From: Nitrospirota bacterium | GTDB taxonomy: Bacteria; Nitrospirota; UBA9217 | Direction: 5' to 3' | Length of the DNA stretch: 64,000 nt | NCBI GenBank assembly: GCA_023229435.1 | Contig: JALNZF010000012.1 | Location: forward strand, 30,086 to 94,085 | Part shown: positions 20,399 to 60,305 of the stretch, piece by piece | Layout: each line of letters begins with the position of its first letter | Position numbering within the stretch: the stretch's first letter is position 1 | Position numbers and translations under genes: made by a program | Notes under the pieces: generated by a model | Database searches by the model: none | What the model was told of the DNA's origin: nothing | What the model saw: the letters and a program-made list of their open reading frames with translations, nothing else

Positions 20399-20625
20399 CC
20401 CTTCTCGTTTTGACTTAAACAACTCACCTTCGAGAGGACGCAGGTGCAAGGGGCAGAAAAAAGTTTAACCAGTTGTACTCCAGGAAGCTCTCTGCGTCCT
20501 CCGCGTGATATCCTAAGTTGCCGCTGAATCATGTAGGCTGCCGCGGCGCAGGGTATTGACATCCCGCTCTCTTTGGGGGAGAGCGCGATGAATACAGTCT
20601 TGTGGTTTTTAAATCATCGAGGTTG

Positions 20626-22674: not shown

Positions 22675-22870
22675 CGCATCATACCCCGGAAGGGGGCGAT
22701 GAAGAACGCTACCCAATGCTTTTTAGTAACCGAGGAATCAAATTCTTCTCAGGATGAAAAGAATATTTTGCCGTAAAAGGCACAGAGAACTAAAATAAAC
22801 TGGAGCTTTTTCTTACCGGTGAATCGGCTTCTCTTTGTGCTCCAGGTGAATTCTATGGCGGAGGTTGACG

Positions 22871-24457: not shown

Positions 24458-24559
24458 ACCCTTTCGCATGAACGTTGAGAGATCAAAGCATGACGCCTTG
24501 CAGTCCGGTTTATTCAGTTATACTGTCCCATCGTTTGCTCAAGATTCTGGAGGTTAAGG

Positions 24560-28928: not shown

Positions 28929-30557
28929 ATGATAATGAATACCTCGGTTAATGTACGTATCTCACAGAAGCGTACGCTGTTATCTGTTCTGGTAATCCTA
29001 TTGGTCGCCGGTGGTATCTATGCCAACAGCCTTTCCAATGGCTTCGTCCTGGACGATGAACTAATTATCGCGGGTAATCCCGCAACCCGCCATTTGAGCG
29101 GCATCGGCGATGTGCTCTTTTCTCCCGATGTCATTAAACCCTATTACCGTCCCCTGAACCGCGCAAGCTACCTGATCGACTACCAGTTGTTCGGCCTCAA
29201 TCCCGCCTGGTTTCACGCAATCAACATCATCATCCACGCGCTGAGTGCGGTCCTGCTGTATCTGGTCGCCTCCCGTCTGCTGGCTGACAACTACGCCGCT
29301 CTGTTCGCGGCGCTGCTGTTCGCGGTGCATCCCGCCAACAGCGAAGCGATCAATTTCATTTCAGCACGGAACACGCTCCTGGCGGGATGCTTCAGCCTTG
29401 CGTCGCTGCTCGCCTTCATGAAGGCCCGCGAGAAGGGCGTACGCCTGCCTTTCCTTTCGGCGTTTCTGTTCTTTCTCGGACTTCTCAGCAAGGAGACCGC
29501 GTTCATGCTGCTTGTAGTAATCGCCGTTTACACGTTCTCCCCGTCTCCCTGGTTTGTCGGGAAAAAGCTGCGGGACCGGTTGATCTCTCTGGTCCCGTAT
29601 CTGGCCGCGGTGGTTGTTTATTTCGCGATGCGTTTCTATTCTCTGCAGGGCATGTTCGGGACCGACATCACCGGCGGAAATCTCTTCAGCCGTCTCGCGA
29701 TGAATTATCACATCATTCCCCAATATATCGGACTGCTGTTGTTCCCGATTGACCTGACAATTTTTCATACAGCGTTAAAGGGAGGTTTCGCGACGCATCT
29801 CGCAATATGGATAGCGCTTTTCATTGCGGTCTGGCTCTGGCTGGTGGCGCGCCGGCGCAATCAAGCAGCCCTGTTCGGCCTGGTTTGGTGCGTGGTCAAT
29901 TATGCGCCGATATCCAATATTGTTCCGATCCCGAGCGAGGCATTTACCGAGCGATTTCTGTACATGCCTGCGATCGGGTTCTTCATTATTGCGGGCGCGT
30001 GCTTTGAACGTCTTCAGGCTGAAGGCAGTCTTAAAAAGGCTGTAAAGCCCGTTGCGGTCCTTCTGTTGCTGCTGTGCGCCGCAATGGCCTTCCAGCGGAA
30101 CCGTGACTGGATGAATGATTACACCCTGTTTGCGAGCGGAGTAAAGAACGACCCCGCCTCAGCTGAGGCCCGCTTCAATCTCGGCACTGCCCTTTTGCAG
30201 GATAAAAACGATAGCGAGGCGGCACGCCGGGAATGGGAAGCAGCGCTGAGCCTGGACCCCCGCCACGCGGATGCGCTTATGCAGATGGGGACCTATGCGG
30301 CAATGACGGGTGACCTGCGGAAGGCCGAGCAGTTTTACCTGTCAGCATTAGCCGCGCCTCCCGGCAGGAGCGACCCGGACAAGTGCATGGCGCATTTCAA
30401 TCTGGGAAAAATTTATGAAAAGCAGCGGCGGCCCCAAGAGGCCCTGCAGCAATATGAATTGTTCCTCAACTATGTCAGCCTGCGCTATAATGAATATACG
30501 CCTGTTGCTGCACAAAGGGCGGCACATTTGCGTATTGGAGTTACTAAGAATAAGTAA
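28929..30557 (+). CDS. TMTC-like TPR membrane protein (most divergent paralog)
   Basis: 542 aa. Motifs: FVLDDELIIAGNP, YYRPLNRASYLIDYQLFGLNPAWFHAINIIIH, HPANSEAINF. The TPR-like C-terminus includes ARFNLGTAL and AHFNLGKIY. Confidence 0.7.
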   Translation: MIMNTSVNVRISQKRTLLSVLVILLVAGGIYANSLSNGFVLDDELIIAGNPATRHLSGIGDVLFSPDVIKPYYRPLNRASYLIDYQLFGLNPAWFHAINIIIHALSAVLLYLVASRLLADNYAALFAALLFAVHPANSEAINFISARNTLLAGCFSLASLLAFMKAREKGVRLPFLSAFLFFLGLLSKETAFMLLVVIAVYTFSPSPWFVGKKLRDRLISLVPYLAAVVVYFAMRFYSLQGMFGTDITGGNLFSRLAMNYHIIPQYIGLLLFPIDLTIFHTALKGGFATHLAIWIALFIAVWLWLVARRRNQAALFGLVWCVVNYAPISNIVPIPSEAFTERFLYMPAIGFFIIAGACFERLQAEGSLKKAVKPVAVLLLLLCAAMAFQRNRDWMNDYTLFASGVKNDPASAEARFNLGTALLQDKNDSEAARREWEAALSLDPRHADALMQMGTYAAMTGDLRKAEQFYLSALAAPPGRSDPDKCMAHFNLGKIYEKQRRPQEALQQYELFLNYVSLRYNEYTPVAAQRAAHLRIGVTKNK

Positions 30558-30847: not shown

Positions 30848-31837
30848 ATGATCATAAAAAAGAGAGCACTCAAAACCCTGATCCTGGCATTCATCGTACT
30901 CGCGGCGATGTCAGGTGGGACCAGTATCGCCGGGGAAACTCAGGTTTCGGCTACCTACCTCTATACCCTGTCGAACTCCATGGGCATCGTCCCCTTCTCC
31001 TGGGTAAAATTGAGTGTCGATACAGCGAACGATGAGGTCTATGTTGTTTCCTCGAAGAAAGTAAGTATCTTCAACGGGACCGGTATGGAGGTGTACGCCT
31101 TTAATGAATCGGGAGATCTCGGCCTGGTCAGCGATGTCGCCGTGCGAAGCAACGGGGATATCCTCGCTCTGAGTTCCCGGTCCGGTCGCGTGGAGCTCAT
31201 TCGATGCAACTTCCGCGGAGAACCGATAGCGACGATCGAACTGAAGAACCTTCCCGCTGAATATGCCGACTTCAGCGCCAACCGGATTGTGATCCATGGG
31301 ACATCCCTCTATCTCGCCAACACAAATAATATGAAGGTGATCGTGACGGACGATGCGGGCGTTTTCCAGAAGGGATATAATTTGGCCTGGATCATCGAGA
31401 AAGAGCTGAAGGAAGAGGGCGCAGATGAGAGGGAGCTGGAAAGAGAGAAGGAGGACAGCGGCATGACCGGTTTCAACGTGGACGCTGAAGGGAGCATGCT
31501 CTTCACCAGCTCCATCGTCGCCAGGGTCTACCGGGTATCCCTCGATGGAAAGATGCAGGCCTTCGGCAGGCGCGGGAGCTCGCCGGGGAAGTTCGGCGTA
31601 CCGGGCGACGTCGTTGTTGATGCAACGGGCAAATACCTGCTCGTATCCGACATCCTCAGGTGCACTATCCTCGTCTTTGACAAGGACTTCCGGTTCCTGA
31701 CGGAGTTCGGCATTCGCGGCTACCGGCCGCACAATATTGTCGGGCCCCTGTACATGGCTGTGGACGCCAAAAACAGGGTCCATGTGTCTCAACTCAGGAA
31801 CAGAGGCGTAAATGTGTATCAGTTCTCCGAGTTATGA
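30848..31837 (+). CDS. secreted NHL-repeat-like beta-propeller protein
   Basis: 329 aa. Signal peptide (MIIKKRALKTLILAFIVLAAMSGGTSIAG). Repeated ~40-aa blades with the G..G.F..P.GVAVD..G..YV.D pattern (GSSPGKFGVPGDVVVDATGKYLLVSD; ILVFD). The large antisense ORF 30911..31792 is judged a GC shadow. Confidence 0.6.
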   Translation: MIIKKRALKTLILAFIVLAAMSGGTSIAGETQVSATYLYTLSNSMGIVPFSWVKLSVDTANDEVYVVSSKKVSIFNGTGMEVYAFNESGDLGLVSDVAVRSNGDILALSSRSGRVELIRCNFRGEPIATIELKNLPAEYADFSANRIVIHGTSLYLANTNNMKVIVTDDAGVFQKGYNLAWIIEKELKEEGADERELEREKEDSGMTGFNVDAEGSMLFTSSIVARVYRVSLDGKMQAFGRRGSSPGKFGVPGDVVVDATGKYLLVSDILRCTILVFDKDFRFLTEFGIRGYRPHNIVGPLYMAVDAKNRVHVSQLRNRGVNVYQFSEL

Positions 31838-32457
31838 TGTGTCTCCGGAGGAGAACAAGCGAAAGGAAGCGCGAGAAAAGGTAAGAACGACAGCGGCAGT
31901 AAGTAATGCAGGTTGCCCCCATTTGTTCCTTCCAGAGAGAGAAGTTCATCCCCTCCGTCAACCTATAAAGAGCTTTTCACCGCGGCATGTTTTATCGCAA
32001 CTTCTTTAAAGTCCGATCCCAAGAAAAAGAGCAATTAAACCCCGGCTTGTTTTTCCTCCGTGATTTTTGCGCCTTCTGCAGCATGCTCCCGTTATTACTG
32101 ATTGCATAAACAGTTACATGGTGGAATCACCATGCTGAATCGGTCTTATCGCTAAGCATAGATTCTATAACTACGTTTTTAAGTGCCAACATATTGTTAA
32201 ATAATTGTTTTTTGAAAGCAATTAAGTGGCATGCCGGTTGCAATACATAAGAGCAAATACAGAAAAGTCACTTGTGCATCAAGAACCCGGTTATCAAAGA
32301 AAATAGGATTTAAATAAAAAGAAAAGGAGGTGTCGTAACAATCCAAGTAGTAGAAACAGCTGTAGCGAAGTCAGATGAGAACAAAATGCAACAAGAAGTG
32401 GAAAACAGGTTGTTTGGTACAGCTGATAAAGTAATCAGCACATGAAGTCCTCCGAAA

Positions 32458-32519
32458 AAGGTAAACCCATCGTAAGGTGGGGACACAAAGACACGGGTCC
32501 TGATAAGCAGGATGGCCGG
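32458..32519 (+). promoter_or_regulatory. GEMM-I-like (cyclic-dinucleotide) riboswitch candidate in the 5' leader of an OmcS-like gene
   Basis: AAGGUAAACCCAUCGUAAGGUGGGGACACAAAGACACGGG parallels the GEMM-I P1 core GGCAAACC-AUUC-GAAA-GAGUGGGACGCAAAGCC. CCCAUC/GGUGGG forms the stem around a GNRA (GUAA) tetraloop, followed by GGGAC.CAAAG. A second hairpin lies downstream (UCCUG-AUAAG-CAGGA; GGCCGG-UUUG-CCGG), 45-105 nt upstream of the ATG at 32564. Confidence 0.4.
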
Positions 32520-32563
32520 TTTGCCGGAAGAAAAAATTAAAAATTTTTTGGAGGAATACACTA

Positions 32564-33868
32564 ATGAAGATCAAATTTAGTATTATCATGGTCGCAGCAA
32601 TCGCGATCATATGCGGACTCAGCGGAACAAGCTTCGCGTTCCATAGCGGCGGCGTCGCAGAGTGCGAAGGCTGCCATTCGATGCACAACAGCTTCGAGGG
32701 TACGACCAACGTCACCGGCCGCACCTTTGCACAGGGCACGGGCCCCTATCTCTTGAAGGCCAATGACCAGGGCGGCACCTGCCTCAACTGCCACAACGCG
32801 GCTGATACAGTAGCCACCAGCTACCACATCTCCACGAACGGCATCACCGCCTATGACAGCACCGTACCGGTCGAAATGACCCCGGGCGGCGACTTCGCCT
32901 GGCTCAAGAAGACCATGAGCTTCATTGTTCGCGGCAACACCAATACCCAGGTCGGCGATCACAAGGGCCACAGCATCGTAGCCGCTGACTATGGCTATGC
33001 TGCAGACCCCGACCTTACCGTAGCGCCGGGCGGCACTTATCCGGCCGGCAACCTGGCCTGCTCCTCCTGCCATGATCCTCATGGCCGCTATCGCCGCGAC
33101 GCAACGGGCGCCTATGCCACCACGGGTCTCCCGATCTTCAACAGCGGCTCCTACACCAGCAGCAAAGACCCGATCGCGGGCGTTGCCGCAGTCGGCGCAT
33201 ACCGTATCCTCGGCGGCAATGGCTATCTGCCGAAGTCCCTTGCCCTCTCCGGGACACCGGCCTTCACGGTCGATCCGATGGATGTCGTTGTTGCCTCGAC
33301 CTACAACCGTTCAGAAGCAACCAGCCAGACCGGTATCGCCTATGGTAAGAACGTAGCTGAGTGGTGCGCAAACTGCCACACCGGCATGCTCCAGGGCACC
33401 TATACCTCCGGCATGGCAGGCCTTCGTCACCCGGCCGGCAACGGCGCCAAGCTGACCGCGGACATCGTGGCCAACTACAACGCCTATGTCTCCTCGGGCA
33501 TCATGACCAACACAGGGAATGCGTTCAGCACCCTGGCGCCGTTTGCAACAGACACCAATGATCGTACAGTCCTCAAGTCAGCGGCTACAAACACCACGAC
33601 CAGAGTTGCAACCACGGGCGACAACGTAACCTGCCTCTCCTGTCACCGCGCACATGCGACGGCCTTCGAGAGCATGCTCCGTTTCGCCTACAGCAACGAG
33701 TTCATGACCGCAGCAGACTCCACCAACGCCGCGATCTACGACTCAGTCAACGGCAAGGGCACTGGCTACAGCGTAGCGCAGCAGACAAATGCATACTATG
33801 GCCGTCCGGCCACAGCATTCGGGCCGAACGCCCGCGTGTTCTGCAACAAGTGCCACGCGAAAGACTAA
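32564..33868 (+). CDS. OmcS-like hexaheme c-type cytochrome (nanowire-type subunit family)
   Basis: 434 aa. GGAGGAA RBS. Signal peptide ending ...TSFA|FHSGGVAECEGCHSMHNS. Six CXXCH motifs (CEGCH, CLNCH, CSSCH, CANCH, CLSCH, CNKCH). Family blocks GGDFAWLKKT, GHSIVAADYGY, PGGTYPAGNLACSSCHDPHGRYRR, AYRILGG, WCANCH, CLSCHRAHATAFESM and C-terminal CNKCHAKD match my recollection of G. sulfurreducens OmcS. Confidence 0.8.
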   Translation: MKIKFSIIMVAAIAIICGLSGTSFAFHSGGVAECEGCHSMHNSFEGTTNVTGRTFAQGTGPYLLKANDQGGTCLNCHNAADTVATSYHISTNGITAYDSTVPVEMTPGGDFAWLKKTMSFIVRGNTNTQVGDHKGHSIVAADYGYAADPDLTVAPGGTYPAGNLACSSCHDPHGRYRRDATGAYATTGLPIFNSGSYTSSKDPIAGVAAVGAYRILGGNGYLPKSLALSGTPAFTVDPMDVVVASTYNRSEATSQTGIAYGKNVAEWCANCHTGMLQGTYTSGMAGLRHPAGNGAKLTADIVANYNAYVSSGIMTNTGNAFSTLAPFATDTNDRTVLKSAATNTTTRVATTGDNVTCLSCHRAHATAFESMLRFAYSNEFMTAADSTNAAIYDSVNGKGTGYSVAQQTNAYYGRPATAFGPNARVFCNKCHAKD

Positions 33869-33905
33869 TACGCAGTTAGTTTCAACATGATGGTGTGTTC
33901 TCAAA

Positions 33906-33940
33906 GAAGGGCTGGAGAAATCCAGCCCTTCTTCTTCTAA
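33906..33940 (+). terminator. rho-independent terminator
   Basis: Perfect 10-bp stem GAAGGGCTGG/CCAGCCCTTC with a 6-nt loop, followed by a TTCTTCT run, 38 nt after the stop of 32564..33868. Confidence 0.6.
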
Positions 33941-34388
33941 AAATTATCATATTCAGTACTGAGATGGTTGTCAGGAGGAGGGAAGAGTCGTAATTAACCT
34001 TTATTAGCTGTTCCGAGGCATAAGCAGGAGTCCAGACCCTCTCTTGTCTCTTGAGGCTTCCGGATTTTTAGCTGAAACCCACCCCGCACTGAGACAAACC
34101 GCATTGAGCGTTGAGAACGATAGGAGTGATCGATGGATAATGTCATGGAAGCTGTTCCCCGGATAAGTACCAAACCGATGAGGACACCTGCTGTTCGATC
34201 GATCACCACTATGGATATGGTTTTCACGTTATCAGCCCGATTGATCACGATCCCTGTTTAGCAGCGATAGAGTAAAATATTGTAATTTAGGGTATGTTTG
34301 TGATAATATATTCACCTATCGTTAAGTTATGAGAGATTGCTGACGGGATATCCAACCAGCTGCATATCAGTGTCTTTGAAATTATTAT

Positions 34389-35684
34389 ATGAAAATTCTC
34401 AAGATTATCTTGGCGAGTTTGCTGCCTATGGCCTTTGTTATCGCAATGGAAGGCGGCTCAGCCGCTTTTCACGCGGGAGGCGTCGGTCCGTGCGAAGGTT
34501 GTCACAGTATGCATAACTCCGTCGACGGCATGCAGATCAATCCGCTTGCGCCCGCCTATCTCCTGAGACAGCAGGACCCCAGCTCCACCTGCCTGTCCTG
34601 CCACGAGCACGCGGGAGATCCCGGCCCCACGACGTACCATGTCAGCACGCCGGTCAATGAACTCCTGCCGGGCATACCCCCGAAGCAGCTCACTCCGGCT
34701 GGAGATTTCGGATGGCTTAATAAGACATTCTCGTGGGTTTCAAACCCAACTTCAGCCACGGCCTATAGCTATGGAGAGCGGCACGGGCACAATATCGTGG
34801 CAGCTGATTATATGTACGATGCCGACAGCACAAATACCACTGCCCCGGGCGGCACCTATCCCGCGAATAGCCTTGGCTGCATCAGCTGCCATGATCCCCA
34901 TGGAAAATACCGGCGGAATCTGGACGGCTCAATAACGACGACAGGGCGTCCTATCGCCGATTCAGGCTCCTTCGCTTCCAGCCGCGATCCCGACAGCGGC
35001 ATGTCAGTCGGTGTTTACCGGATGCTGGGCGGACAGAACTATCGGCCCAAGTCACTGATCGGCGGTCTGGCCTTTGTGAACGACCCGCCCGCCGCCGTGG
35101 CGCCGGACCAGCCCAACCGGTCGGAGGCAGCAACGCAGACCCGCGTTGCTTATGGGGCCGGGATGTCGGAGTGGTGCATAAACTGCCACCCCAACATGCA
35201 AGGCGGAGGAATGACGGGCCACCACATCGCGGGCTCCACGGCAAAGCTCGGCGCCGTGAAGGCGGACAACTACGCCAAATATGTCAAGACCGGCGATCTC
35301 TCGGGATCGTGGGCAACTTCCTATCTTTCGCTCGTTCCCTTCGAAGAGGGAACAACGGACTATTCAACCCTCAAGGCCCATGCAAAGACCGATGATTCGG
35401 TGCTCGTCGGTCCCAACGGAACGACCTCCCAGGTGATGTGTCTTACCTGCCACCGGGCGCACGCATCAGGGTGGGACCACATGACGAAGTGGAACACCGG
35501 GACCGACTACATCGTTTATAACGGATATTATTCTCAGGAGGGACAAGCGTATCAGCCCTACGGGCAGGGACGAACGGAAGCCGAAGCAACGCGGCCGTAT
35601 TATGACAAACCCGCGGGAAAATTCGCCCTGAACCAGGACGCCCTCTGCAATAAATGCCATAACGGAAACTACAGGGGCATGTGA
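34389..35684 (+). CDS. OmcS-like hexaheme c-type cytochrome (tandem paralog)
   Basis: 431 aa. Signal peptide ...GSAA|FHAGGVGPCEGCHSMHNS. Six CXXCH (CEGCH, CLSCH, CISCH, CINCH, CLTCH, CNKCH). Same family blocks: AGDFGWLNKT, GHNIVAADYMY, CISCHDPHGKYRR, VYRMLGG, WCINCH, CLTCHRAHASGWDHM, CNKCHNG. Confidence 0.8.
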   Translation: MKILKIILASLLPMAFVIAMEGGSAAFHAGGVGPCEGCHSMHNSVDGMQINPLAPAYLLRQQDPSSTCLSCHEHAGDPGPTTYHVSTPVNELLPGIPPKQLTPAGDFGWLNKTFSWVSNPTSATAYSYGERHGHNIVAADYMYDADSTNTTAPGGTYPANSLGCISCHDPHGKYRRNLDGSITTTGRPIADSGSFASSRDPDSGMSVGVYRMLGGQNYRPKSLIGGLAFVNDPPAAVAPDQPNRSEAATQTRVAYGAGMSEWCINCHPNMQGGGMTGHHIAGSTAKLGAVKADNYAKYVKTGDLSGSWATSYLSLVPFEEGTTDYSTLKAHAKTDDSVLVGPNGTTSQVMCLTCHRAHASGWDHMTKWNTGTDYIVYNGYYSQEGQAYQPYGQGRTEAEATRPYYDKPAGKFALNQDALCNKCHNGNYRGM

Positions 35685-36026: not shown

Positions 36027-37427
36027 GTGAAAGCGCTCATAATCATCGTGTTTGCTTCTCTGCTGACATCAGGCTGCGCTGCGCTTCCGTCAACGGTAAA
36101 GCCATTGCTCGAGGATGAGGGCGAAGTTTCCGTATACCTTGAGCCTCTTCCCCAGGCGGCGGCGAATTTGAAGTTCACGATCGACCGTCTCTCCCTCGTG
36201 GCCGGCGACGGCACGGAATTTCCCCTCCTCCTTGCCATGTCCGATATCCAGGGCAACGACGTGCGAAGACAACGGTTTCTTGCCGCGGGCCGCGTGCCTC
36301 CGGGGCAGTATAGCGGACTATCGTACGGGGTCGTAAAAGCCGCGCTCCGGGGTGAGGAAGGAGAGGCGGCCCTTCTCGTACCCGAAGCGCCGGTGAGGAT
36401 CCCCCTCTCCTTTGAAATCGGCCGCAAGAAGGTTGTTGTCCTGTCTCTGTCGTTCCGGTACGAGGGGTCCGTCCAAAAGGGATTCAGCTTCACTCCGCAG
36501 TTCTCCCTCTTCATCCCCGGCATGCCGGTGAGCGGCCTGGCGGGGTTCACTGTTAACGGGGGCGACAACACCGTCACCGTCTTCGACAAAAAGGCAGGAC
36601 AGGTCGCGGCGATCATCGCCACGGGCAGGGTGCCCGAGGCCATTGCCCTGGACCAGAAGGGCCGGCTGGCATATCTCTCCCTCGGGGAGGATGACGCCAT
36701 CGAGGTGATCGATATCACGGATGGAACGTTCATCAACAGAGTGAACCTGAGGACCGGCGACGGGCCCCGCGAGCTGGCGCTGACTCCCGACGGAAAGCGC
36801 CTGCTGAGCCTGAACGCCCGCTCCCGCACTGTCAGCATCATCGATCCTGCCTCGGCGATCGAACTCAACAGGGTCCCGGTGGGAGAGGGGCCCCGCCGGC
36901 TCCTGGTCAGCCGGACCGGGGAGCGGTGCTACGTGTTCAACAGCCGTTCAGATACCATTTCGGTCATCGACATCGCCAACAGCGCCATCGTCGCGACGAT
37001 CTCCACGGAGCCCGGCCCCTTGATGGGCCAGTTCAACCGCAAAGGCGACCGGCTCTACGTGGTCTATGAGGGGAGCCCCTATCTCTCGGTCATCGATCCC
37101 TCCTCTCTTTCTGTTGTCAAAAGGGTGTTTGTCGGCCATGGGATCAGCGTTATCAAGACCGATACCCTTACCGATCTTCTGTACGTCTACCGGGGCGGGG
37201 ACTCGCGGATTGAGGTGTATGAGCCCTTCTCCCTCATCCCGATCGATTACATCCCGGCCGTGAGCGACATCGCGGACATGACCATCGACAGCGAAACGAA
37301 CAATCTCTTCGTTGTCAGCGTTGAAAAGAACACACTTCTGTCCATCAGCCTGATGAGTAAAAAGATCGTTGCGGAAATCGATACCGGCGGGCGCCCGGCG
37401 TGGGTGGCGGTCATGGGGCAGCGATAG
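36027..37427 (+). CDS. lipoprotein with YVTN-family beta-propeller repeats
   Basis: GTG start. Signal + lipobox-like LLTSGC. The C-terminal ~300 aa carries repeated 40-residue YVTN-type blades (TGRVPEAIALDQKGRLAYLS; TGDGPRELALTPDGKRLLSLNARSRTVSIIDPAS; VGEGPRRLLVSRTGERCYVFNSRSDTISVIDIANS; LYVVYEGSPYLSVIDPSS). Confidence 0.65.
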   Translation: MKALIIIVFASLLTSGCAALPSTVKPLLEDEGEVSVYLEPLPQAAANLKFTIDRLSLVAGDGTEFPLLLAMSDIQGNDVRRQRFLAAGRVPPGQYSGLSYGVVKAALRGEEGEAALLVPEAPVRIPLSFEIGRKKVVVLSLSFRYEGSVQKGFSFTPQFSLFIPGMPVSGLAGFTVNGGDNTVTVFDKKAGQVAAIIATGRVPEAIALDQKGRLAYLSLGEDDAIEVIDITDGTFINRVNLRTGDGPRELALTPDGKRLLSLNARSRTVSIIDPASAIELNRVPVGEGPRRLLVSRTGERCYVFNSRSDTISVIDIANSAIVATISTEPGPLMGQFNRKGDRLYVVYEGSPYLSVIDPSSLSVVKRVFVGHGISVIKTDTLTDLLYVYRGGDSRIEVYEPFSLIPIDYIPAVSDIADMTIDSETNNLFVVSVEKNTLLSISLMSKKIVAEIDTGGRPAWVAVMGQR

Positions 37428-37430: not shown

Positions 37431-39683
37431 ATGGGCCGGAACAATGAACATTATTTTATTGTATTCATGCTGTTCAACCTGCTTCTCCTGCAGGGGACGG
37501 CATATGCGGACGTCTTCACGGGGTCCGCGGAATTGTTCGAACAGATCGGCAGGACAAACAATGTTACGTCCGAGGGGCTGACGTCGGTCACCAAATCGAC
37601 CTATTTTTTACAGCGGTATAAACTTGACTACCATAATTCGATCTATCCGCAGGTCTTTCTGCGGGCTGGAGTGCGTCTGGAAAAGCAGGCCGTAAACAGT
37701 GACCTGGACGGCTTCACGAGCAGGCAGCATTCCACTGTCTTGATGCCCTCGGCCGGCATCACGCTCGCAAATCCCTTTGTCGTTTTCGGGGCCGGCTACG
37801 ACGAGCGGGATGAAAAGGTGGAGTCAGGGGGAAGTTCATTCAGGACCTTCCGTGAGACGAACAGCGCCTTCCTGGGGCTCAGGCCTGAGGGACTTCCCAC
37901 GGTGGACCTCATCTACAGCGGACAGAAGCGGTATGACGCGGACCGCGCATCGATCGACCAGGAGAATCGGCTGTTTTCCCTGAATACGATGTACCGGCCG
38001 GTCAGAAGTGTACAGCTCTCTTACAATACCTCCTACGAGGACAACGAACAACATATAGCGCGGATCGAAACGCGCGTGCTGAGCCAAAGCGCGCGAGCAG
38101 GTTATGCAGACCGGTTTTTCAAGGATAGAATGTCTTTCGCAACCAATTACAATCTTACCCGTCAGGATGTGCAGTATACCAGGGCCGGCACGGGGGCGGT
38201 GGTCCAGACGCAGATCTTCCCCCTGGCCGGGCTCTCAGCCATTAATGACCAGCCGAACATCGGCGTCCTGAACTCAACTCCTGCGCTGATCGACGGCAAT
38301 TTCACCGCAAGCAGCGGTATGAACATAGGACAGACCCCCTCCCTGGGGGGCGATATCAAAAAAAGGAACGCGGGACTGGACTTCGGGCTCCCTCTCGCAG
38401 TCAGCACCCTGTTCGTCTGGGTTGACCGGCAGGTTCCGGCCGATGCGGCCAATTCCTTTGTCTGGGAAATCTATGTCAGCCAGGACAACCAGACTTGGAG
38501 CCTCCATCAGACGGTCTTTCCCGCGGATTTCGGCGCGTTCGACAACCGGTTCGAGCTCTCCTTCGCCGGCGTAAGCACCCGGTACATCATGGCAGTGACG
38601 AGGCCGCTGTCCGTGGCAGTCGTCCCGCCGCCGGGCGTGGATGTAAGCAATATTTTCATCACCGAGCTCCAGGCCTTCAATGACCAGGCCGTCTCGCTGA
38701 CCGCCGGGACCGCGAACAAAACAGCGCTGAACTCAGCGTCCCTGGACGTGAACACGAAAGTGAATATCATCAGGAGCGACCGGTATGCGCTCTTGTACGA
38801 CCTCTATTATGTGGAGAGGACTGCTGATCAGACAGGACAGCCTTTGCGCCGCGCGAGCACGCTCACCAATGCCCTTATTGCGAACGAGAAGTTCAACAGG
38901 GTGCTTACCGGCAACGCCAGGATCATGCGCCAGGACGATAATGCTGTGGGCGAGGGTTCGTCGACCACCTATGATTACGCAGCCTCCCTTACAGCCTCGT
39001 GGGCGTCCCTCCCGAAGCTGAGCCACATTGCCGTGCTGTCCGGAAAACGGGAGGATTTTGTTGACAAACATATTGTGAAGGACTCGGGAAGCCTGTCGCT
39101 GACCAACACCGCCGAGGTCTATCCGGGAATCAACGCCTATCTGGGCGGCATAGAGACCCTTGTTTCATCGAAGTCGGATGAGGCGATCGTACACACTGAG
39201 AGCTCCCTGGTTTCATTCGGCACCAACATGGTTCCCCACAGGACAATGACCGTAAATTTAAATTATGACTGGTCGGAAGCGGTACAGTGGGGAAGCGACG
39301 CAAGCCTTGTGCCTGCCGGCGTCGCGGTATCGAGAAGACAGAGCATGCTCGCAAGCCTCGCCTATAACCCGCTCGGCAGCCTCTATCTTTTCAGTTCGAT
39401 CCAGAGAATTGAGGAGAAGGGCAAGGAAGGAATCACCTCCACCGTCTTCAGCGGATCGTGGTCGGCCCAGCGCACCGGAGGCGCTCTCGAACTGCGGTTC
39501 AATTACGCCGATTATGTCGAGTCCGAGGCGAGGACGAGGACGCGCAATTACGGTCCGTCGGCACGATGGAAGATAAACGCGAGTGCCTTTCTCGAAGTCG
39601 CATACACAATCGCGACCATTGATTCTCCGCTGAATACTCAGGAATCGACTGCCCTGAACGCCAATTTTAAAATGACCTTTTGA
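37431..39683 (+). CDS. large outer-membrane beta-barrel protein (750 aa)
   Basis: Signal peptide (..LLLLQGTAYA|DV). Alternating amphipathic strand pattern throughout. Abundant Y/N/S/T/G. C-terminal ...ALNANFKMTF ends with a terminal Phe, the OMP beta-barrel signature. Size is compatible with a 26-28-strand barrel. Confidence 0.65.
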   Translation: MGRNNEHYFIVFMLFNLLLLQGTAYADVFTGSAELFEQIGRTNNVTSEGLTSVTKSTYFLQRYKLDYHNSIYPQVFLRAGVRLEKQAVNSDLDGFTSRQHSTVLMPSAGITLANPFVVFGAGYDERDEKVESGGSSFRTFRETNSAFLGLRPEGLPTVDLIYSGQKRYDADRASIDQENRLFSLNTMYRPVRSVQLSYNTSYEDNEQHIARIETRVLSQSARAGYADRFFKDRMSFATNYNLTRQDVQYTRAGTGAVVQTQIFPLAGLSAINDQPNIGVLNSTPALIDGNFTASSGMNIGQTPSLGGDIKKRNAGLDFGLPLAVSTLFVWVDRQVPADAANSFVWEIYVSQDNQTWSLHQTVFPADFGAFDNRFELSFAGVSTRYIMAVTRPLSVAVVPPPGVDVSNIFITELQAFNDQAVSLTAGTANKTALNSASLDVNTKVNIIRSDRYALLYDLYYVERTADQTGQPLRRASTLTNALIANEKFNRVLTGNARIMRQDDNAVGEGSSTTYDYAASLTASWASLPKLSHIAVLSGKREDFVDKHIVKDSGSLSLTNTAEVYPGINAYLGGIETLVSSKSDEAIVHTESSLVSFGTNMVPHRTMTVNLNYDWSEAVQWGSDASLVPAGVAVSRRQSMLASLAYNPLGSLYLFSSIQRIEEKGKEGITSTVFSGSWSAQRTGGALELRFNYADYVESEARTRTRNYGPSARWKINASAFLEVAYTIATIDSPLNTQESTALNANFKMTF

Positions 39684-39733
39684 GGATGCCTGCGCGAAAA
39701 AACGGATCTCATAGGCGAACATTGGAGAAAAAA

Positions 39734-40324
39734 ATGAAGAACTACAAAAATGGCGGGAACCTTCTTTGCGTGACCGTACTGCTGGCTGTTATCATCACCG
39801 CGGCCGGCTGCAAATCCCAGTCTCTGGAGGTGTATCGGGACCAGAAAATGGACATAGGATCGATCTATACCGTTGCCGTCATGCCTTTGGTGAACCTGTC
39901 GAGGGACCAGATGGCGGCGGAACGGGTGCGGGATGTGTTAATAACCATGCTCCTTGCCGACGGTCGCGTGTACGTGATCCCGACCGGAGAGGTCGCCCGG
40001 CAGGTCTCCATGGTCGGGATCTTGAATCCCTCCCTGCCCACGAACGAAGAGGTCATAAAGCTCGGAAAGGCGCTGAAGGTCCAGGGGATTCTAACCGGAA
40101 TGATTAAGGAATATGGTGACGTGAGAGCGGGCTCAGCTACCGCGAATGTCATATCGATAAGCATGCTGCTGACGGAAGTCGATACCGGGAAGGTCGTCAG
40201 CTCCGTGTCATCCACGAAAGGCGGCATCGGTTTTTTTGAACGCCTTTTCGGCGGAGGCGGCGAACCGATGAACGTTGTTACGACAAAGGCAATTAAGGAT
40301 GTCATCAATAAACTTCTTCAATAA
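39734..40324 (+). CDS. small lipoprotein with CsgG/LpoB/TolB-N-like alpha/beta domain
   Basis: ORF open from 39680. ATG at 39734 preceded by GGAGA. Lipobox ITAAGC. Mature domain IYTVAVMPLVNLSRDQMAAERVRDVLITMLLADGRVYVIP..GILTGMI follows the 'kiAV.PF.N.s......g..la..l...L...g.f.V' pattern of the CsgG/LpoB/DUF799 superfamily. Confidence 0.55.
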   Translation: MKNYKNGGNLLCVTVLLAVIITAAGCKSQSLEVYRDQKMDIGSIYTVAVMPLVNLSRDQMAAERVRDVLITMLLADGRVYVIPTGEVARQVSMVGILNPSLPTNEEVIKLGKALKVQGILTGMIKEYGDVRAGSATANVISISMLLTEVDTGKVVSSVSSTKGGIGFFERLFGGGGEPMNVVTTKAIKDVINKLLQ

Positions 40325-43300
40325 AGAGCGGTTGCTCGTCGTTGCCTGCGCCCTCTGCCTCGTCGGGCATGCGGCCTCCCTGCAACCCGCTTACGCGGTC
40401 GAGACCCTGCGCAAGGCCCCGGCGAAAGTCACCCTGAGTCCTCTCGCTAAGATCCACGAGGGAAGCGCCAGGGCAGGCATGACCATTGCCAGGGCCCCTC
40501 AGGCGATAACGTTTGACCCGCTTGAGACACGGCCCTACAGCAAGACGCCGTTCTTTCTTGCCGCCACGGTTTCCAGCGGCCTCCGCGTCACCTACACAAG
40601 CTCCAATGCCGCTGTCGCAACCGTCAGAGGCAACAAGGTGACGATCACGGGCGTCGGAACGACAGAGATCACTGCCTATCAGCGCGGAAACAGGAACTAC
40701 CATGCGGCGGAGCCGGTAACGCGGGCTCTGACGGTGAACAAGGCCAAAGCCAAAGTCACCCTGAGCCGTCTCGCTCGAACCTACGACGGCGCGCCGAAAT
40801 CCGTCAAGGCCTCGACGAACCCGAAAGGCCTGGTCGTGGGCATCGCCTACGACGGGAATGCCTCGGCGCCCGTCAATGCCGGACGATACACGGTGACAGC
40901 CACGGTCCGGGACGCCAACTACGAGGGAAGCGCCGAGGCCGGCATGATCATAGCGAAGGCGCCTCAGAAGATCGCCTTCAATGCCCCGACCGCGCGGACA
41001 TACGGCGATGCGCCGTTCGATCTGGTTTCCACCTCGTCCAGCGGCCTCACGACAACCTACGCAAGCTCCAATCCCGCTGTCTCGGTCATCAGCGGCAATA
41101 AGGTGACGATCACGGGCGCGGGATCGACCGTGATCACCGCTTTTCAGGGGGGGGACGGCAACTACCTTCCTGCGAAACCAATGCAGCGGATACTGACCAT
41201 TGCGAAGGCGGAACAGACAATTGCGTTCGATGCCCCAACCACCGTGACCTACGGCGTCCTTGATTTTTCTCCCAAGGCATTGGCGAGTTCGGGCCTTCCC
41301 GTGGTCTACGAAAGCTCGGACCCCTCGGTGGCCGTTGTCGTCGGAAACCAGGTCCATATCATCCGCGCCGGCGCATCGACGCTCATTGCGTCGCAGCCGG
41401 GAGACGACAACTATCTCGCGGCAAAGCCGGTAACGCAGGCGCTGACGGTGAACAAGGCCAAAGCCGAAGTCTCCCTCATCGGTCTCGATCAGACCTATGA
41501 CGGCGCACAGAAGCAGGCCGGGGCCAGGACCGAGCCTGAAGGCCTGAGCGTCACCCTGACCTACGACAAGAAGGCAACGGCGCCCGCGAAGGCGGGCAGC
41601 TACGCGGTCATCGGCACGGTTCGGGACACCAACTACGAGGGAAGCGCCACGGCAACGCTGAACATTGCGAAGGCTCCCCAGACGATAGCGTTCGATGCCC
41701 CGGTCACCGTGACCTACGGTGTCGTTGATTTTTCTCCCAAGGCATTGGCGAGTTCGGGCCTTCCCGTGTTCTACGAAAGCTCGGACCCCTCGGTTGCCGT
41801 TGTCATCGGAAACCAGGTCCATATCGTCGGCGCAGGCGCATCGACGCTCACTACATCGCAGCCGGGAGACGACAACTATCTCGCGGCAAAACCGGTAACG
41901 CAGGCGCTGACGGTGAACAAGGCCAAAGCCGAAGTCTCCCTCATCGGTCTCGATCAGACCTATGACGGCGCTCAGAAGCAGGCCGGGGCCAGGACCAAGC
42001 CTGAAGGTCTGAGCGTTACCCTGACCTACGACAACAAGGCAACGGCGCCCGCGAAGGCGGGCAGCTACACGGTCATCGGCACGGTACAAGACGCCAACTA
42101 CGAGGGTAGCGCCACGGCAACGCTGAACATTGCGAAGGCGGGTCAGACGATAGCGTTCGATGCTCTCACAACACGCACCTACGGCGACGGGACGTTCGTC
42201 CTTGCCTCCACGGTGTCGAGCGGCCTTACCGCGAGCTACGGGAGCTCCAATCCGTCTGTCGCGATTATCAGCGGCAACCAGGTGAGAATTGCGGGGGCTG
42301 GAACTGCCGAGATCACTGCCTATCAGGATGGAGATGGCAACTACCTTGCCGCAAAACCGGTGATGCAGGCGCTGACGGTGCATAAGGCCAAAGCCGAAGT
42401 CTCCCTCATTGGTCTCGATCAGACCTATGACGCCACACAGAAGCAAGTCGGGGCCAGGACGGACCCAAAAAACCTGAACGTTGTGTTCCTCTACGACAAT
42501 AATGCAACGGCGCCCGCGAAGGCGGGCAGCTACGCGGTCGTCGGCACGGTACAAGACGCCAACTACGAGGGCAGCGCCTTCGCAACGCTGACCATTGCGA
42601 AGGCCGGCCAGAAGATCGCCTTCGATGCCCCGCTCACCGTTACCTACGGCGACGCCGACTTTTCTCCCGGGGCAAGGGCGAGTTCGGGACTTCCCGTGTT
42701 CTACGAAAGTTCGGACCCGTCAGTGGCCATTGTCGTCGAAAACCATGTCCATATCATCAGCGCGGGCTCATCGGAACTCATTGCGTCGCAGCCGGGAGAC
42801 GACAACCACCTTGCGGCGGCGCCGAAAAAGCGGAAGCTGGCGGTGAAGCGGGCCGCTCAAACGATAACGTTTCCCGCCCTTGAGGCAAGGCCTTACAATA
42901 AGGTCCCGTTCTCTCTTGAAGCCGCGGCGTCCAGCGGCCTGACCGTTGCTTGTGAAAGTTCGAATGACGATGTCGCAACGGTGAACGGCAACCAGGTGAC
43001 GATCAGGGGTGTTGGTACAACGACGATAACGGTGTTTCAGTCAGGGGACGGCAATTATCTGGCAGCAGCCCCGGTGAAGCAGGTCTTGACGGTGCGGAAG
43101 GCCCCCGCAAACGTAACGCTGGGCGCTCTGAAGCACATCTATGACGGGAAGCCGAAATCAGCGGCGAGCGAGACCAGACCGGCCAGACTTTCCGTGACGT
43201 TCACCTACGATGGAAGTGATAAACCGCCGGTCAATGCCGGAAGCTACTCGGTCGCAGCCACTGTCCGGGAAGACAACTACGAGGGGACCGCCACCGGGAC

Positions 43301-45026
43301 GATGACCATCGCGAAGGCCGCCCAGAGGATCACGTTCGATCCCCTGATCACGATGACCTACGGCGACAGGCCGTTCTATCTTTTTTCCGAGGTGTCCAGC
43401 GGTCTCATCCCCGCTTATGAAAGCTCGGGTCCCGCTGTTGCGATCGTGACCGGCTCACGCGTGACGATCGTGGGAGCCGGGACCGCGACCATCACGGCTT
43501 CCCAGGCCGGGGACAACAACCACCTTGAAGCGGAACCGGTGGGGCGGACATTCATCGTGAAAAAGGCCCCTCCGCTGATCACGCTGAACGGTCTGGAGCA
43601 CAGGTATGATGGAACGCCAAAACCGGCTGCAAGCATGACCTCACCCGCCGGCCTCAGCGTGCACATCACCTACGATGGAAATCCGGTTGCCCCCGTCAAG
43701 GCGGGACAATACGAAGTGATTGCCGCGGTCCAGAACCCCAACTATGAGGGAAGTGCGTCAGGCACAATGTCCATAGCCAAGGCGTCCCAAAAGATAAAAT
43801 TACCTGTCCTTGGGGTCAAAACCCTGGGGACCGGACCCTTCGAGCTCCCCGCCGTGCTGCCCAGCGGCCTTGCTGTTGACTACGAAAGCTCCGATCCGAC
43901 CATTGCGACCGTCAGCGGCAACCAGTTGACGGTCAGGGCCGTCGGGACCGCGACGATCACCGCATTTCAGGAGGGGGACGGCAACCACCTGCCGGTAGAG
44001 CCGGTGATGCGGCCGCTGATCGTGCTCGCTCAAAAGCTCCGTATCGTCGTATTTCCCGTGAAAAATCTGAGCGGGAGACCTGCGCCCCTGAAGGAGATCC
44101 GTCAATCGCTCATTGAGGCGCTGGCCCGCCGGGGAGACGTCGTACTCGACGACGAAGCGATGCTGCAGTTCATGACGCGTCACCGCATACGGTATACCGG
44201 CGGCGTCGATATCCTCACGGCCAGGGCGTGGAGGGAAGAGACGGGAACGGAGGCAGTACTCATCGCCTCGGTGGACCAGTATAAAGATTCCGAGGTGCCG
44301 AAGATCTCGCTTACCTGCCGTCTCGTTTCTACCGGGGAGATGCCGCGCATCCTGTGGATGGAGAGCATCGGATTGTCCGGCGACGATTCACCCGGTCTGT
44401 TCGGAAGCGGGTTGATAGGGCAAATCGGGCCCCTCCAGAACAAGGCCATCAAGCAACTCATGGACTCCCTGTCCGCATTCTACGCGGATAGAATATCCCC
44501 CCCGGCGGAAAAGGGCTGGGTCATGGAGGTATTCAAACCAAAGAAGTCCTCTGAAACGCCGTTTATCGATCCCGACCGGACCTACAAGGTCGCTATCATG
44601 CCGTTCTACAACAGTACCAAGAACTCGAATGCCGGCGAGATCCTTGCGCTGCGGTTCATGAGCCAGCTGGTCAAGAACGGGGCCTTTGATGTCCTTGAAC
44701 CCGGCGTGGTCCGGCAGAAGTTCCTGGACTACAGAATCATCATGAATGACGGCATTGCCAGGGCCGATGCGGAAAGTTTTTTTATCAACCAGAAAATGGA
44801 CCTGATTCTTATGGGCAAGATCATCGACTACCAGGAAGGCAATCCAGATATGGAGTTCGAAGTGCAGGTCTATAACAGAAAAAGCAAGTCAATGGCCTGG
44901 TCGTCGTGGAGCTACAATCGCGGCAACGATGCCATGCTCGTGTTCGACTGGAACCGGGTGAGCAACGTCGCAGAACTGGCATCGCAGATGGTAAAGACCA
45001 TTATCCGGGACATGATGACGGAATGA
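40299..45026 (+). CDS. giant (1,575 aa) secreted repeat protein: alternating Ig-like and MBG domains with two C-terminal CsgG/LpoB-like domains
   Basis: ORF open from 40275. The ATG at 40299 gives signal peptide MSSINFFNKERLLVVACALCLVGHAASLQPAYA and overlaps the upstream lipoprotein gene by 26 nt. About 7 units of [Ig-like: TYGD.PF.L.A..SSGL.V.YESSNP.VA.V.GN.V.I.GAG...ITA.Q.GDGNY..A.PV] + [MBG: KA.V.L..L..TYDG..K.........L.V...YDG....P..AG.Y.V.ATV.D.NYEGSA...L.IAKA]. The C-terminal ~330 aa has two CsgG/LpoB-like blocks (LRIVVFPVKNLSGRP..; YKVAIMPFYNSTKNSNAGEILALRFMSQLVKNGAFDVLEP). Confidence 0.75.
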   Translation: MSSINFFNKERLLVVACALCLVGHAASLQPAYAVETLRKAPAKVTLSPLAKIHEGSARAGMTIARAPQAITFDPLETRPYSKTPFFLAATVSSGLRVTYTSSNAAVATVRGNKVTITGVGTTEITAYQRGNRNYHAAEPVTRALTVNKAKAKVTLSRLARTYDGAPKSVKASTNPKGLVVGIAYDGNASAPVNAGRYTVTATVRDANYEGSAEAGMIIAKAPQKIAFNAPTARTYGDAPFDLVSTSSSGLTTTYASSNPAVSVISGNKVTITGAGSTVITAFQGGDGNYLPAKPMQRILTIAKAEQTIAFDAPTTVTYGVLDFSPKALASSGLPVVYESSDPSVAVVVGNQVHIIRAGASTLIASQPGDDNYLAAKPVTQALTVNKAKAEVSLIGLDQTYDGAQKQAGARTEPEGLSVTLTYDKKATAPAKAGSYAVIGTVRDTNYEGSATATLNIAKAPQTIAFDAPVTVTYGVVDFSPKALASSGLPVFYESSDPSVAVVIGNQVHIVGAGASTLTTSQPGDDNYLAAKPVTQALTVNKAKAEVSLIGLDQTYDGAQKQAGARTKPEGLSVTLTYDNKATAPAKAGSYTVIGTVQDANYEGSATATLNIAKAGQTIAFDALTTRTYGDGTFVLASTVSSGLTASYGSSNPSVAIISGNQVRIAGAGTAEITAYQDGDGNYLAAKPVMQALTVHKAKAEVSLIGLDQTYDATQKQVGARTDPKNLNVVFLYDNNATAPAKAGSYAVVGTVQDANYEGSAFATLTIAKAGQKIAFDAPLTVTYGDADFSPGARASSGLPVFYESSDPSVAIVVENHVHIISAGSSELIASQPGDDNHLAAAPKKRKLAVKRAAQTITFPALEARPYNKVPFSLEAAASSGLTVACESSNDDVATVNGNQVTIRGVGTTTITVFQSGDGNYLAAAPVKQVLTVRKAPANVTLGALKHIYDGKPKSAASETRPARLSVTFTYDGSDKPPVNAGSYSVAATVREDNYEGTATGTMTIAKAAQRITFDPLITMTYGDRPFYLFSEVSSGLIPAYESSGPAVAIVTGSRVTIVGAGTATITASQAGDNNHLEAEPVGRTFIVKKAPPLITLNGLEHRYDGTPKPAASMTSPAGLSVHITYDGNPVAPVKAGQYEVIAAVQNPNYEGSASGTMSIAKASQKIKLPVLGVKTLGTGPFELPAVLPSGLAVDYESSDPTIATVSGNQLTVRAVGTATITAFQEGDGNHLPVEPVMRPLIVLAQKLRIVVFPVKNLSGRPAPLKEIRQSLIEALARRGDVVLDDEAMLQFMTRHRIRYTGGVDILTARAWREETGTEAVLIASVDQYKDSEVPKISLTCRLVSTGEMPRILWMESIGLSGDDSPGLFGSGLIGQIGPLQNKAIKQLMDSLSAFYADRISPPAEKGWVMEVFKPKKSSETPFIDPDRTYKVAIMPFYNSTKNSNAGEILALRFMSQLVKNGAFDVLEPGVVRQKFLDYRIIMNDGIARADAESFFINQKMDLILMGKIIDYQEGNPDMEFEVQVYNRKSKSMAWSSWSYNRGNDAMLVFDWNRVSNVAELASQMVKTIIRDMMTE
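41221..42180 (+). repeat. two near-identical 480-bp tandem repeat units inside the giant gene
   Basis: 41221-41700 and 41701-42180 are almost identical at nucleotide level (each encodes one Ig-like + one MBG unit, e.g. KAKAEVSLIGLDQTYDGAQKQAGART.PEGLSVTLTYD). A third, more diverged unit follows (42330-42600). Confidence 0.7.
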
Positions 45027-56253: not shown

Positions 56254-56370
56254 GCTGCTCCTTAAAAAACCGCGACAGAACAATGTGATACACATTCACT
56301 GTTCAATCGTTCTTGTCCTGTTGACCCTGTTGCACCCAGGTAAGTATGGTAAAGCATCATCATTCGTCCA

Positions 56371-60097: not shown

Positions 60098-60215
60098 ACT
60101 GCTCCTTAACCGTTGCAAGAGAACGATGTCATGCTCATTCTCCGTTCGTTCATCCTGGTTCCATTGACCATGATGAACACAGGTGAGTGCCGTAATCATC
60201 ATGATCAGTACTCTC

Positions 60216-60305
60216 ATGATAACAAGTTACCCGATCCAAAGCAAGCCGCATTTTTTTCTTTTCTCTTGAATGACTCTTGCACAATTGGAAGACTTTTGTT
60301 AAAGT
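60216..60305. promoter_or_regulatory. conserved divergent promoter block (copy 2)
   Basis: Same elements as copy 1: plus-strand -35 TTGCAC (60277-60282), 17-nt spacer, -10 TAAAGT (60300-60305). Minus-strand -35 TTGCTT (complement of 60239-60244) and -10 TATCAT (complement of 60216-60221). Confidence 0.35.

Follow-up and report, generated by a model that had tools for sequence, protein, structure and literature searches.

A 64,000-nucleotide (nt) stretch of a Nitrospirota metagenome-assembled genome (MAG; contig JALNZF010000012.1, positions 30,086–94,085), referred to here as the window, contains a complete omcS/osc-type locus. Two tandem open reading frames (ORFs) on the + strand, ORF A (32564..33868; 434 amino acids; NCBI MCK9419654.1) and ORF B (34389..35684; 431 amino acids; NCBI MCK9419655.1), encode OmcS-like hexaheme cytochromes. 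A, an OmcS-type cytochrome and candidate major filament subunit, fills the omcS slot of the cluster, and B is an ortholog of GSU2501/OscC. Taken together, we consider it probable that the window holds an omcS/osc filament locus in which A is the wire subunit behind a riboswitch and B is the counterpart of OscC. An earlier note on this DNA had placed the pair at 32564–35684 and had proposed that, if the proteins polymerize, they are at least two nanowire subunit isoforms. The coordinates hold, whereas the isoform proposal is not the best reading of a pair in which one gene occupies the omcS slot and the other is orthologous to OscC.

A and B are full-length relatives of OmcS

If the signal peptide is removed before F-H, as it is from OmcS, the mature proteins comprise ~409 residues in A and ~405 in B, in line with the ~410-residue chain with six CXXCH motifs that the earlier note had described for both. 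Each protein contains exactly six such motifs (residues 34, 73, 166, 268, 357, and 427 in A; 35, 68, 164, 263, 351, and 420 in B) and no other heme motif. In the gene calls of public assemblies, B begins at 34428 and is 418 amino acids long. The sequence blocks said to be shared by the pair were found almost in full: the N-terminal block (FHSGGVAECEGCHSMHNS / FHAGGVGPCEGCHSMHNS) is present, as are CxSCHDPHG(R/K)YRR, (A/V)YR(I/M)LGG, WC(A/I)NCH, CL(S/T)CHRAHA, and CNKCH, but B reads PAGDF where GGDF had been given.

The proposed similarity to the OmcS family lies far beyond chance. When the two proteins were searched with phmmer against PDB sequences, OmcS (6EF8/6NEF) was the only hit for either of them, with an expectation value (E) of 2e-128 for A, spanning OmcS residues 1–407, and of 8e-133 for B, spanning residues 1–405. 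Pfam and NCBIfam scans of A and B returned generic multiheme matches only (Paired_CXXCH_1, c7, and c3); these libraries hold no OmcS-specific model, so a missing OmcS match there is uninformative.

The window proteins were compared one by one against L001, a Geobacter genome locus that carries omcS. The best match of A was OmcS (54.8%, 410 bits), followed by OmcT (48.6%) and GSU2501 (44%). For B it was GSU2501/OscC (56.6%, 488 bits), a relationship that is reciprocal, with OmcS at 427 bits and OmcT at 376 bits. A is 55–57% identical to OmcS, matches it at 17 of the first 18 mature residues, and terminates in CNKCHAKD, ending like the ...CHAKD of OmcS and OmcT. The two window proteins are only 43–45% identical to each other.

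AlphaFold2 monomer models, built heme-free on family alignments, reached a mean predicted local distance difference test score (pLDDT) of 75.5 and a predicted template modeling score (pTM) of 0.77 for A, and of 74.7 and 0.79, respectively, for B. In Foldseek comparisons, both models matched 6EF8_A (template modeling (TM) scores 0.83/0.88, E 1e-40 for A; 0.80/0.85, E 7e-44 for B) and no other structure significantly, with the caveat that 6EF8 was possibly among the AlphaFold2 training data.

Heme ligands and His16

We checked the axial ligands in an alignment of A, B, mature OmcS, and 119 database homologs. The heme motifs of A, B, and OmcS co-align, at OmcS mature positions 9, 47, 140, 239, 328, and 400, and the non-motif histidines 2, 16, 63, 110, 147, 257, and 335 (OmcS mature numbering) are all kept in A and B. 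As the His at position 63 is variable in about one-fifth of the wider family set, six invariant non-motif histidines remain, which is the number of distal ligands that six bis-His hemes require. We take the trans ligand of heme 5 in OmcS to be His16, an assignment that the conservation pattern and the single trans His reported for this heme (PMC6584659) support. All 12 axial ligands of OmcS are histidines, 11 of them from the own chain and one, that of heme 5, from the neighboring subunit (PMC6584659; PMC9473688).

His16, which the earlier note had pointed out at mature position 16 of both proteins, is indeed present as H41 in A and H42 in B. It is invariant among close homologs and occurs also in Geobacter OmcT and GSU2501/OscC, and its presence therefore does not tell the one proven wire-former apart from related paralogs. 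As a test, His16 is informative all the same, as it can fail: two further family members in the window (C and D, described below) lack this residue, as do most C-type proteins. In a database search with C, His16 was found in only 9 of the 86 hits with a readable N-terminal motif and was missing from the other 77. With the C-type branch mostly devoid of it, A and B belong to the part of the family that bears His16 and includes OmcS. The N-terminal arm that bears His16 has a pLDDT below 50 in the monomer models of both A and B, which would be unsurprising for a model built without heme.

A riboswitch directly upstream of A

A GEMM-I-type cyclic-dinucleotide riboswitch aptamer (32451..32529, +) ends 34 nt before the start codon of A. 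Its best Rfam family is RF03167 (c-di-GMP-I-GGC; E 2.7e-14), which it matches with 69.2 bits where the gathering score is 59, and the same family is the best match for the leader of Geobacter omcS in L001. The Geobacter omcST genes have been reported to follow a riboswitch responsive to cyclic GMP-AMP (cGAMP) as well as to cyclic di-GMP (c-di-GMP) (PMC6456294).

The putative expression platform (32544..32555, +) consists of a U-run and a Shine–Dalgarno sequence (SD; GGAGG, 32550–32554) and is predicted to pair with 32448–32459, the 5' strand of the aptamer. In the minimum free energy (MFE) fold of 32445–32575 this pairing forms a 12-bp helix that sequesters the SD (−37.9 kcal/mol, z −3.3). Between the aptamer and the start codon there is too little room for a terminator, which points to translational control, and the riboswitch may act as a translational ON switch for A.

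Run against 82 sources, a covariance model derived from the window element matched 31 times at E ≤ 0.01, a count that includes the element itself, and every match was on the gene strand. With a sister contig (L085) added, 30 of the 32 hits end 0–35 nt (81 nt in one case) before the start of an OmcS-family ORF, and this adjacency spans at least six phyla (loci including L001, L035, L050, L073–L076, and L085). In the Anaeromyxobacter loci, home of A's closest relatives, the model found no match. The aptamer of the sister contig is identical to that of the window at 79 of 79 positions, compared with ~89% identity in the aligned flanking DNA, and the window riboswitch resembles the short-P3 type of Nitrospirota and Desulfobulbales.

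Both the riboswitch and the strong SD are confined to A. Upstream of B and of the following OscD-like gene, no riboswitch was found even at E ≤ 0.1, and no SD is evident for B. A promoter-like site with an extended −10 element lies ahead of B at 34280–34307. Moreover, a 13-bp GC-rich, terminator-like hairpin (33904..33933, +) stands 36 nt past the stop codon of A. On direct folding it has a stability of −29.8 kcal/mol (z −6.5), which none of 200 shuffles equaled, whereas a consensus terminator scan did not list it. A hairpin of this strength suggests that A is largely its own transcription unit.

Distribution of the locus and apparent replacement of the wire-slot gene

Homologous loci were drawn from a scan of species-representative genomes, which gave 199 related loci. 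The order NHL-like gene, one to five OmcS-family genes, and OscD-E-F-G-H-I recurs across at least six phyla and was seen in Nitrospirota, Thermodesulfovibrionia, Geobacterales, Anaeromyxobacter (Myxococcota), Desulfobulbaceae (Desulfobulbales), Rokubacteria, Bacteroidota, and others; tandem OmcS-family genes are therefore the rule. The layout of the window, with a first-slot gene, an OscC-type gene, and the machinery genes, is that of Geomonas and Citrifermentans. OmcS genes in Thermodesulfovibrionia MAGs had been reported earlier in hidden Markov model surveys (PMC8478452).

We built a neighbor-joining tree of 60 sequences with C and D as the root and 100 bootstrap replicates. It unites B with the genes that occupy the OscC position in four Nitrospirota MAGs (bootstrap 100), and the sister group of this Nitrospirota clade is the GSU2501 clade of Geobacterales, likewise with a bootstrap of 100. 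A is joined to genes of Anaeromyxobacteraceae (bootstrap 98), and this group is nested in a first-slot clade of Myxococcota and Geobacterales (bootstrap 100). In the sister Nitrospirota loci (L074, L063, and L068; positions ~7976, 3512, and 6806), the genes that occupy the first slot form a separate, Nitrospirota-specific clade, again with a bootstrap of 100. Consistent with the tree, the closest relatives of A in species-representative genomes are found in Anaeromyxobacteraceae (66–70%) rather than in Nitrospirota, whereas B and all machinery proteins are closest to Nitrospirota loci. This closeness, along with the NCBI label "Nitrospirota bacterium", is the basis for the taxonomic assignment of the window. 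The simplest reading of this discordance is that the wire-slot gene of the window was replaced horizontally.

The junction concerned is not peculiar to one assembly. A sister 310-kb contig has the same gene order, with A 87–94% and B 71–75% identical, and the same NHL-A-B-OscD junction occurs in two other assemblies, an ENA contig of 93.6 kb and a Logan contig of 16 kb (run SRR8449812). The GC content is continuous across the A junction.

Some Nitrospirota loci carry 3–5 tandem OmcS-family genes (L079 = MFD00008, L073, L068, and L042), and those of L079 (Nitrospirota MFD00008) include an identical duplicate pair. Such tandem copies indicate rapid local amplification of the wire-slot gene.

The osc cluster and neighboring genes

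The conserved unit begins with a secreted β-propeller protein of 329 amino acids (30848..31837, +), which shares 39.7% identity with the gene directly before omcS in L001 and whose homologs precede OmcS-family genes in 60 loci. The earlier note had described an NHL-repeat gene immediately upstream of the pair. Its position and its kinship to the Geobacter omcS-upstream gene stand, but the protein gave no Pfam NHL match even at E ≤ 5 and only a partial match to NCBIfam ScyF/NHL (E 1.3e-9), far below the cutoff. It is better called a GSU2505-like β-propeller than an NHL-repeat protein.

Downstream of B, whose end at 35684 is followed by the start of the OscD-like gene at 36027, the genes of the assembly machinery are all on the + strand. 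The same OscC–OscD adjacency occurs in L001, L018, L029, L063, and L074. The first is an OscD-like YVTN/YncE β-propeller lipoprotein (36027..37427; 45.7% to the GSU2500-like protein of L001; Pfam YNCE, NCBIfam beta_rpt_yvtn). It is followed by an OscE-like secreted protein of 750 amino acids (37431..39683), a putative outer-membrane channel component that is 32.8% identical over its full length to the GSU2499-like protein of L001; no Pfam family matched it, and its position is conserved in 64 loci. Next come an OscF-like lipoprotein of the LpoB/GNA1162 type (39680..40324; 52% to the GSU2498-like protein of L001; Pfam LpoB) and, in the OscG position, a protein of 1583 amino acids with at least six MBG_3 domains (40275..45026; Pfam MBG_3, E 7e-147), whose type is found in the same position in 51 loci.

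The OscH position, likewise conserved, is occupied by a PPIC-type peptidyl-prolyl isomerase of 585 amino acids (45204..46961; Pfam Rotamase_2, E 1e-25), and the OscI position by a cytochrome of 654 amino acids with 26 CXXCH motifs (46992..48956). The latter has counterparts of 48–65% identity in 36 loci and fits the "~70 kDa/26 heme GSU2495" of PMC12977616. A 16-heme cytochrome in the OscJ position (443 amino acids, 48967..50298; 16 CXXCH; eight Pfam Paired_CXXCH_1 matches) and an NHL-repeat β-propeller in the OscK position (302 amino acids, 50303..51211; Pfam NHL, E 5e-25) complete the series. For OscG–K, compared by description only, gene order and domain content fit the published accounts of GSU2497–2493 (PMC12977616, PMC13194489), and homologs of this type follow OscF in Geomonas and Geobacter loci. 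The eight-gene block GSU2500–2493 is reported downstream of every GSU2501-like gene (PMC12977616). PMC13194489, citing Shen et al. 2025, describes osc as the omcS-companion operon, with OscH in folding, OscE/F/G in secretion, and OscD in morphology.

We considered whether the missing CXXCH motif of the window OscD-like protein is a meaningful difference and rejected this idea, as 63 of 64 homologs also lack it. The motif occurs only in the G. sulfurreducens-clade protein (1 of 64), next to the lipobox.

Genes related to others of the Geobacter locus lie farther upstream. A membrane GT-C/PMT_2-like protein with C-terminal TPR repeats (28929..30557, +) is 48% identical over 521 amino acids to the PMT_2+TPR protein of L001 and is an ortholog of the TPR gene that adjoins the Geobacter omcS locus. 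Two tandem copies of a GSU2502-like membrane protein of ~1005 amino acids with a spermine/spermidine-synthase domain (copy 1 at 4964–7981 and copy 2 at 8057–11071, both on the − strand) show 49–50% full-length identity to the Geobacter protein encoded between omcT and GSU2501. Around the locus we also observed ~11 paralogous proteins of 530–690 amino acids that combine a multi-pass domain at the N terminus with TPR repeats at the C terminus (59–760, 937–2691 (−), 11379–26479, 28929–30557, and 51445–53268). An F-x-x-DD-type motif close to the N terminus was seen in several of the paralogs inspected, and one paralog matches Pfam PMT_2; these proteins resemble GT-C/TMTC-like protein glycosyltransferases. 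Comparable glycosylation and TPR gene sets have been reported to adjoin OmcE clusters (10.1101/2025.10.22.684050). A YfhO-like membrane protein of 792 amino acids is encoded at 26517–28895.

Two further OmcS-family paralogs in the window

The earlier note had named two family members; four were found. ORF C (55111..56295, −) encodes a third OmcS-family protein with six CXXCH motifs, 43.6% identical to B and 44.3% to OmcS, and ORF D (58955..60217, −) a fourth, also with six motifs and 45.1% identical to B. Their N termini (FHAGGAGECRECHEDEKG in C and FHSGGAAECRECHEDNKG in D) lack His16 and read CRECH-ED-E/N at the site of CEGCH-TM-H in OmcS. Both proteins miss two loops and have gained three cysteines. 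They belong to a large His16-less branch that includes 7-heme paralogs of Geobacteraceae (L011 and L034), and no substitute heme 5 ligand specific to C and D was evident in the alignment.

Two other proteins with heme motifs were noticed in this region: a hexaheme protein of 379 amino acids with two cytochrome-c7-type domains, encoded between C and D (56721–57860, +), and a protein of 327 amino acids with a possible lipoprotein signal and 4–5 heme motifs (53681–54664, −). Either might serve as an electron carrier in the periplasm, in the manner of the Ppc proteins, which charge OmcS.

Proposed mechanism and alternative explanations

In the model that we propose, A is a c-type cytochrome that is exported via Sec and carries six bis-His hemes. 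Its subunits would most likely join head-to-tail as those of OmcS do, with His16 ligating heme 5 of the next subunit. Stacking of hemes 1 and 6' would then give an insulated heme wire for extracellular electron transfer. When no ligand is bound, the 5' strand of the aptamer would pair with the SD; ligand binding would free the SD, and A would be translated. B would work with the eight-gene machinery as a minor, base, or adaptor subunit or as an electron-entry module and not as a bulk isoform. Folding, export, and shaping of the filament would be the task of the OscD–K equivalents, with the electrons coming from the 26- and 16-heme cytochromes.

We favor, with moderate confidence, the view that A polymerizes into an OmcS-type filament, because its N-terminal arm and heme ligands are nearly completely conserved, because the full assembly cluster is present, and because OmcS expressed alone in Shewanella forms filaments (10.1101/2023.10.26.564108). 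Several points weigh against this interpretation. OmcT and OscC carry His16 yet are not known to polymerize, and the N-terminal arm that would bring His16 to heme 5 is modeled at low confidence. The position of G. sulfurreducens OmcS relative to the clade of A is weakly placed (bootstrap 36–43), and given these weak deep nodes, we call A OmcS-type and not a strict ortholog of GSU2504. As regards the riboswitch, at least one further family of its Rfam clan gave a lower-scoring match to the aptamer, and the suggested switch mechanism derives from a single MFE fold. As of October 2025, the sole bacterial cytochrome-nanowire structure from outside G. sulfurreducens is that of an OmcE homolog, and solved OmcS filaments are limited to G. 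sulfurreducens (10.1101/2025.10.22.684050). It has also been argued that homology cannot identify nanowires across genera (PMC12977616), and the physiological need for OmcS filaments is disputed (PMC13194489).

A first alternative is that neither A nor B polymerizes and that both work as separate hexaheme cytochromes, in the periplasm or at the outer surface, carrying electrons or serving as terminal metal reductases, as perhaps do OmcT and OmcJ. OmcS is the only proven wire, paralogs with the same motifs have no assigned role, and multiheme cytochromes evolve so fast that annotation transfer is unreliable (PMC12977616); in addition, the interface region is poorly modeled in our proteins. We nevertheless regard this explanation as unlikely. 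Judged by the conserved His pattern of the family and the solved structure (PMC6584659), the family is one conserved distal His short for a heme 5 liganded within its own chain, unless His16 acts in trans. The co-conservation of the full assembly cluster and the closeness of A to OmcS, above all in the first mature residues, also speak against it. Still somewhat less probable is that A and B are interchangeable isoforms, each building its own homopolymeric nanowire. All 12 predicted axial histidines, His16 included, are present in both proteins, both have the OmcS fold, and B has its own promoter-like site; furthermore, it has been suggested that GSU2501 might form an uncharacterized nanowire and could be the ancestor of OmcS (PMC12977616). 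Set against this are the limited identity between A and B and their placement in different, strongly supported clades. In all genomes, B-type genes go together with the machinery, whereas the first-slot gene varies and is exchanged; riboswitch and strong SD are found only at A; and no OscC filament has been reported. OscC is a separately conserved lineage, and filament formation in G. sulfurreducens is known for OmcS itself only (PMC12977616). It seems unlikely that B is a bulk wire subunit.

The contrast between A, nearest to Anaeromyxobacteraceae, and its Nitrospirota-like surroundings could also arise if Myxococcota- or Geobacter-like DNA had been joined to a Nitrospirota contig during assembly or binning. 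We consider such an artefact very improbable: the sister 310-kb contig and the ENA and Logan contigs share the junction, the GC content runs on over it, and the riboswitch in front of A is like the short-P3 type of Nitrospirota and Desulfobulbales. Horizontal replacement of the first-slot gene explains these data better. Alternatively, and in our view improbably, the four paralogs A–D divide labor within one filament system, and the riboswitch–OmcS unit is, separately, an ancient switch. In that case A would be the bulk subunit, and B may start or anchor the filament, linking it to the OscE–G channel and to the 26- and 16-heme donors. C and D could accept a neighbor's His16 on heme 5 but could not donate one, and could serve as polarity-defining caps or terminators, analogous to the terminator pilins of chaperone–usher pili. 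The SD-sequestering riboswitch–OmcS unit, spread over at least six phyla, may represent an ancient second-messenger switch for wire production.

Significance and comparison with known systems

The OmcS family, the osc cluster, their wide distribution, and the riboswitch control of omcS are already published. Our analysis adds modest new points, namely the apparent subunit swap, four co-resident paralogs with and without His16, and a start-abutting riboswitch that spans phyla. If A polymerizes, a Nitrospirota lineage would join the expected makers of OmcS-type conductive filaments, and nanowire-based extracellular electron transfer would extend beyond Desulfuromonadia in groundwater or sediment communities. 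The locus is also a compact natural experiment, in which the wire-slot gene apparently came from a donor of Myxococcota or Geobacter type and the machinery remained native. This pattern suggests that the machinery tolerates foreign subunits, which would be useful for nanowire engineering. Paralogs with and without His16, together with the riboswitch abutting the start, offer handles on the control of filament length, polarity, and expression. The current picture is unchanged in that the osc cluster had already been reported to be widespread.

The closest known system is G. sulfurreducens OmcS (GSU2504; 6EF8 and 6NEF). A and B share with it six CXXCH motifs in the same order, the distal histidines including His16, 55–57% identity over the whole mature chain, and the putative cleavage site before F-H, and it is their sole structural match. 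For A the likeness further comprises the CNKCHAKD end, the slot after a GSU2505-like gene, and a GEMM-I-type riboswitch directly upstream. The differences are that the host of the window belongs to the phylum Nitrospirota, that no omcT follows A, and that A groups with first-slot genes of the Anaeromyxobacter/Geomonas type.

The riboswitch belongs to the same Rfam clan as the Geobacter GEMM-I/GEMM-Ib riboswitches and has the same fold and position relative to the gene. Geobacter GEMM-Ib has been described as terminator-based, whereas the 34-nt gap in the window is too short for this, and the predicted pairing partner of the SD is the aptamer's 5' strand, which would favor translational control of A.

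B resembles GSU2501/OscC in sharing the Y-----YSQEG gap and the RAHASGW indels, in a C-terminal extension past the last heme motif that replaces the ...CHAKD end, and in its position before the OscD gene, and the clades of the two join with a bootstrap of 100. About 43% of the residues of B differ.

As described in PMC13194489 and PMC12977616, the G. sulfurreducens osc cluster has the same eight-gene order from the β-propeller to the NHL protein, judged for OscG–K by domain content and position, and GSU2505-like, PMT_2/TPR, and GSU2502-like genes are found near the window cluster as well. The window, however, has two copies of the GSU2502-like gene, placed on the opposite strand ~21 kb upstream rather than between the cytochromes, no two-component system (equivalents of GSU2506/2507) stands between the TPR and NHL-like genes, and TPR/GT-C-like paralogs (~11) surround the locus. 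The window OscD-like protein lacks the CXXCH motif, as nearly all of its homologs do.

Finally, the tetraheme OmcE filaments of G. sulfurreducens and Desulfuromonas soudanensis offer a more distant parallel, in which a heme is likewise ligated by a His of the neighboring subunit (PMC9473688; 10.1101/2025.10.22.684050). OmcE has four hemes versus six and is reported to bear no sequence or fold similarity to OmcS (PMC9473688). Its clusters are nonetheless alike in encoding a large β-barrel and β-propeller lipoproteins, often with glycosylation and TPR genes adjacent (PMC9473688; 10.1101/2025.10.22.684050).

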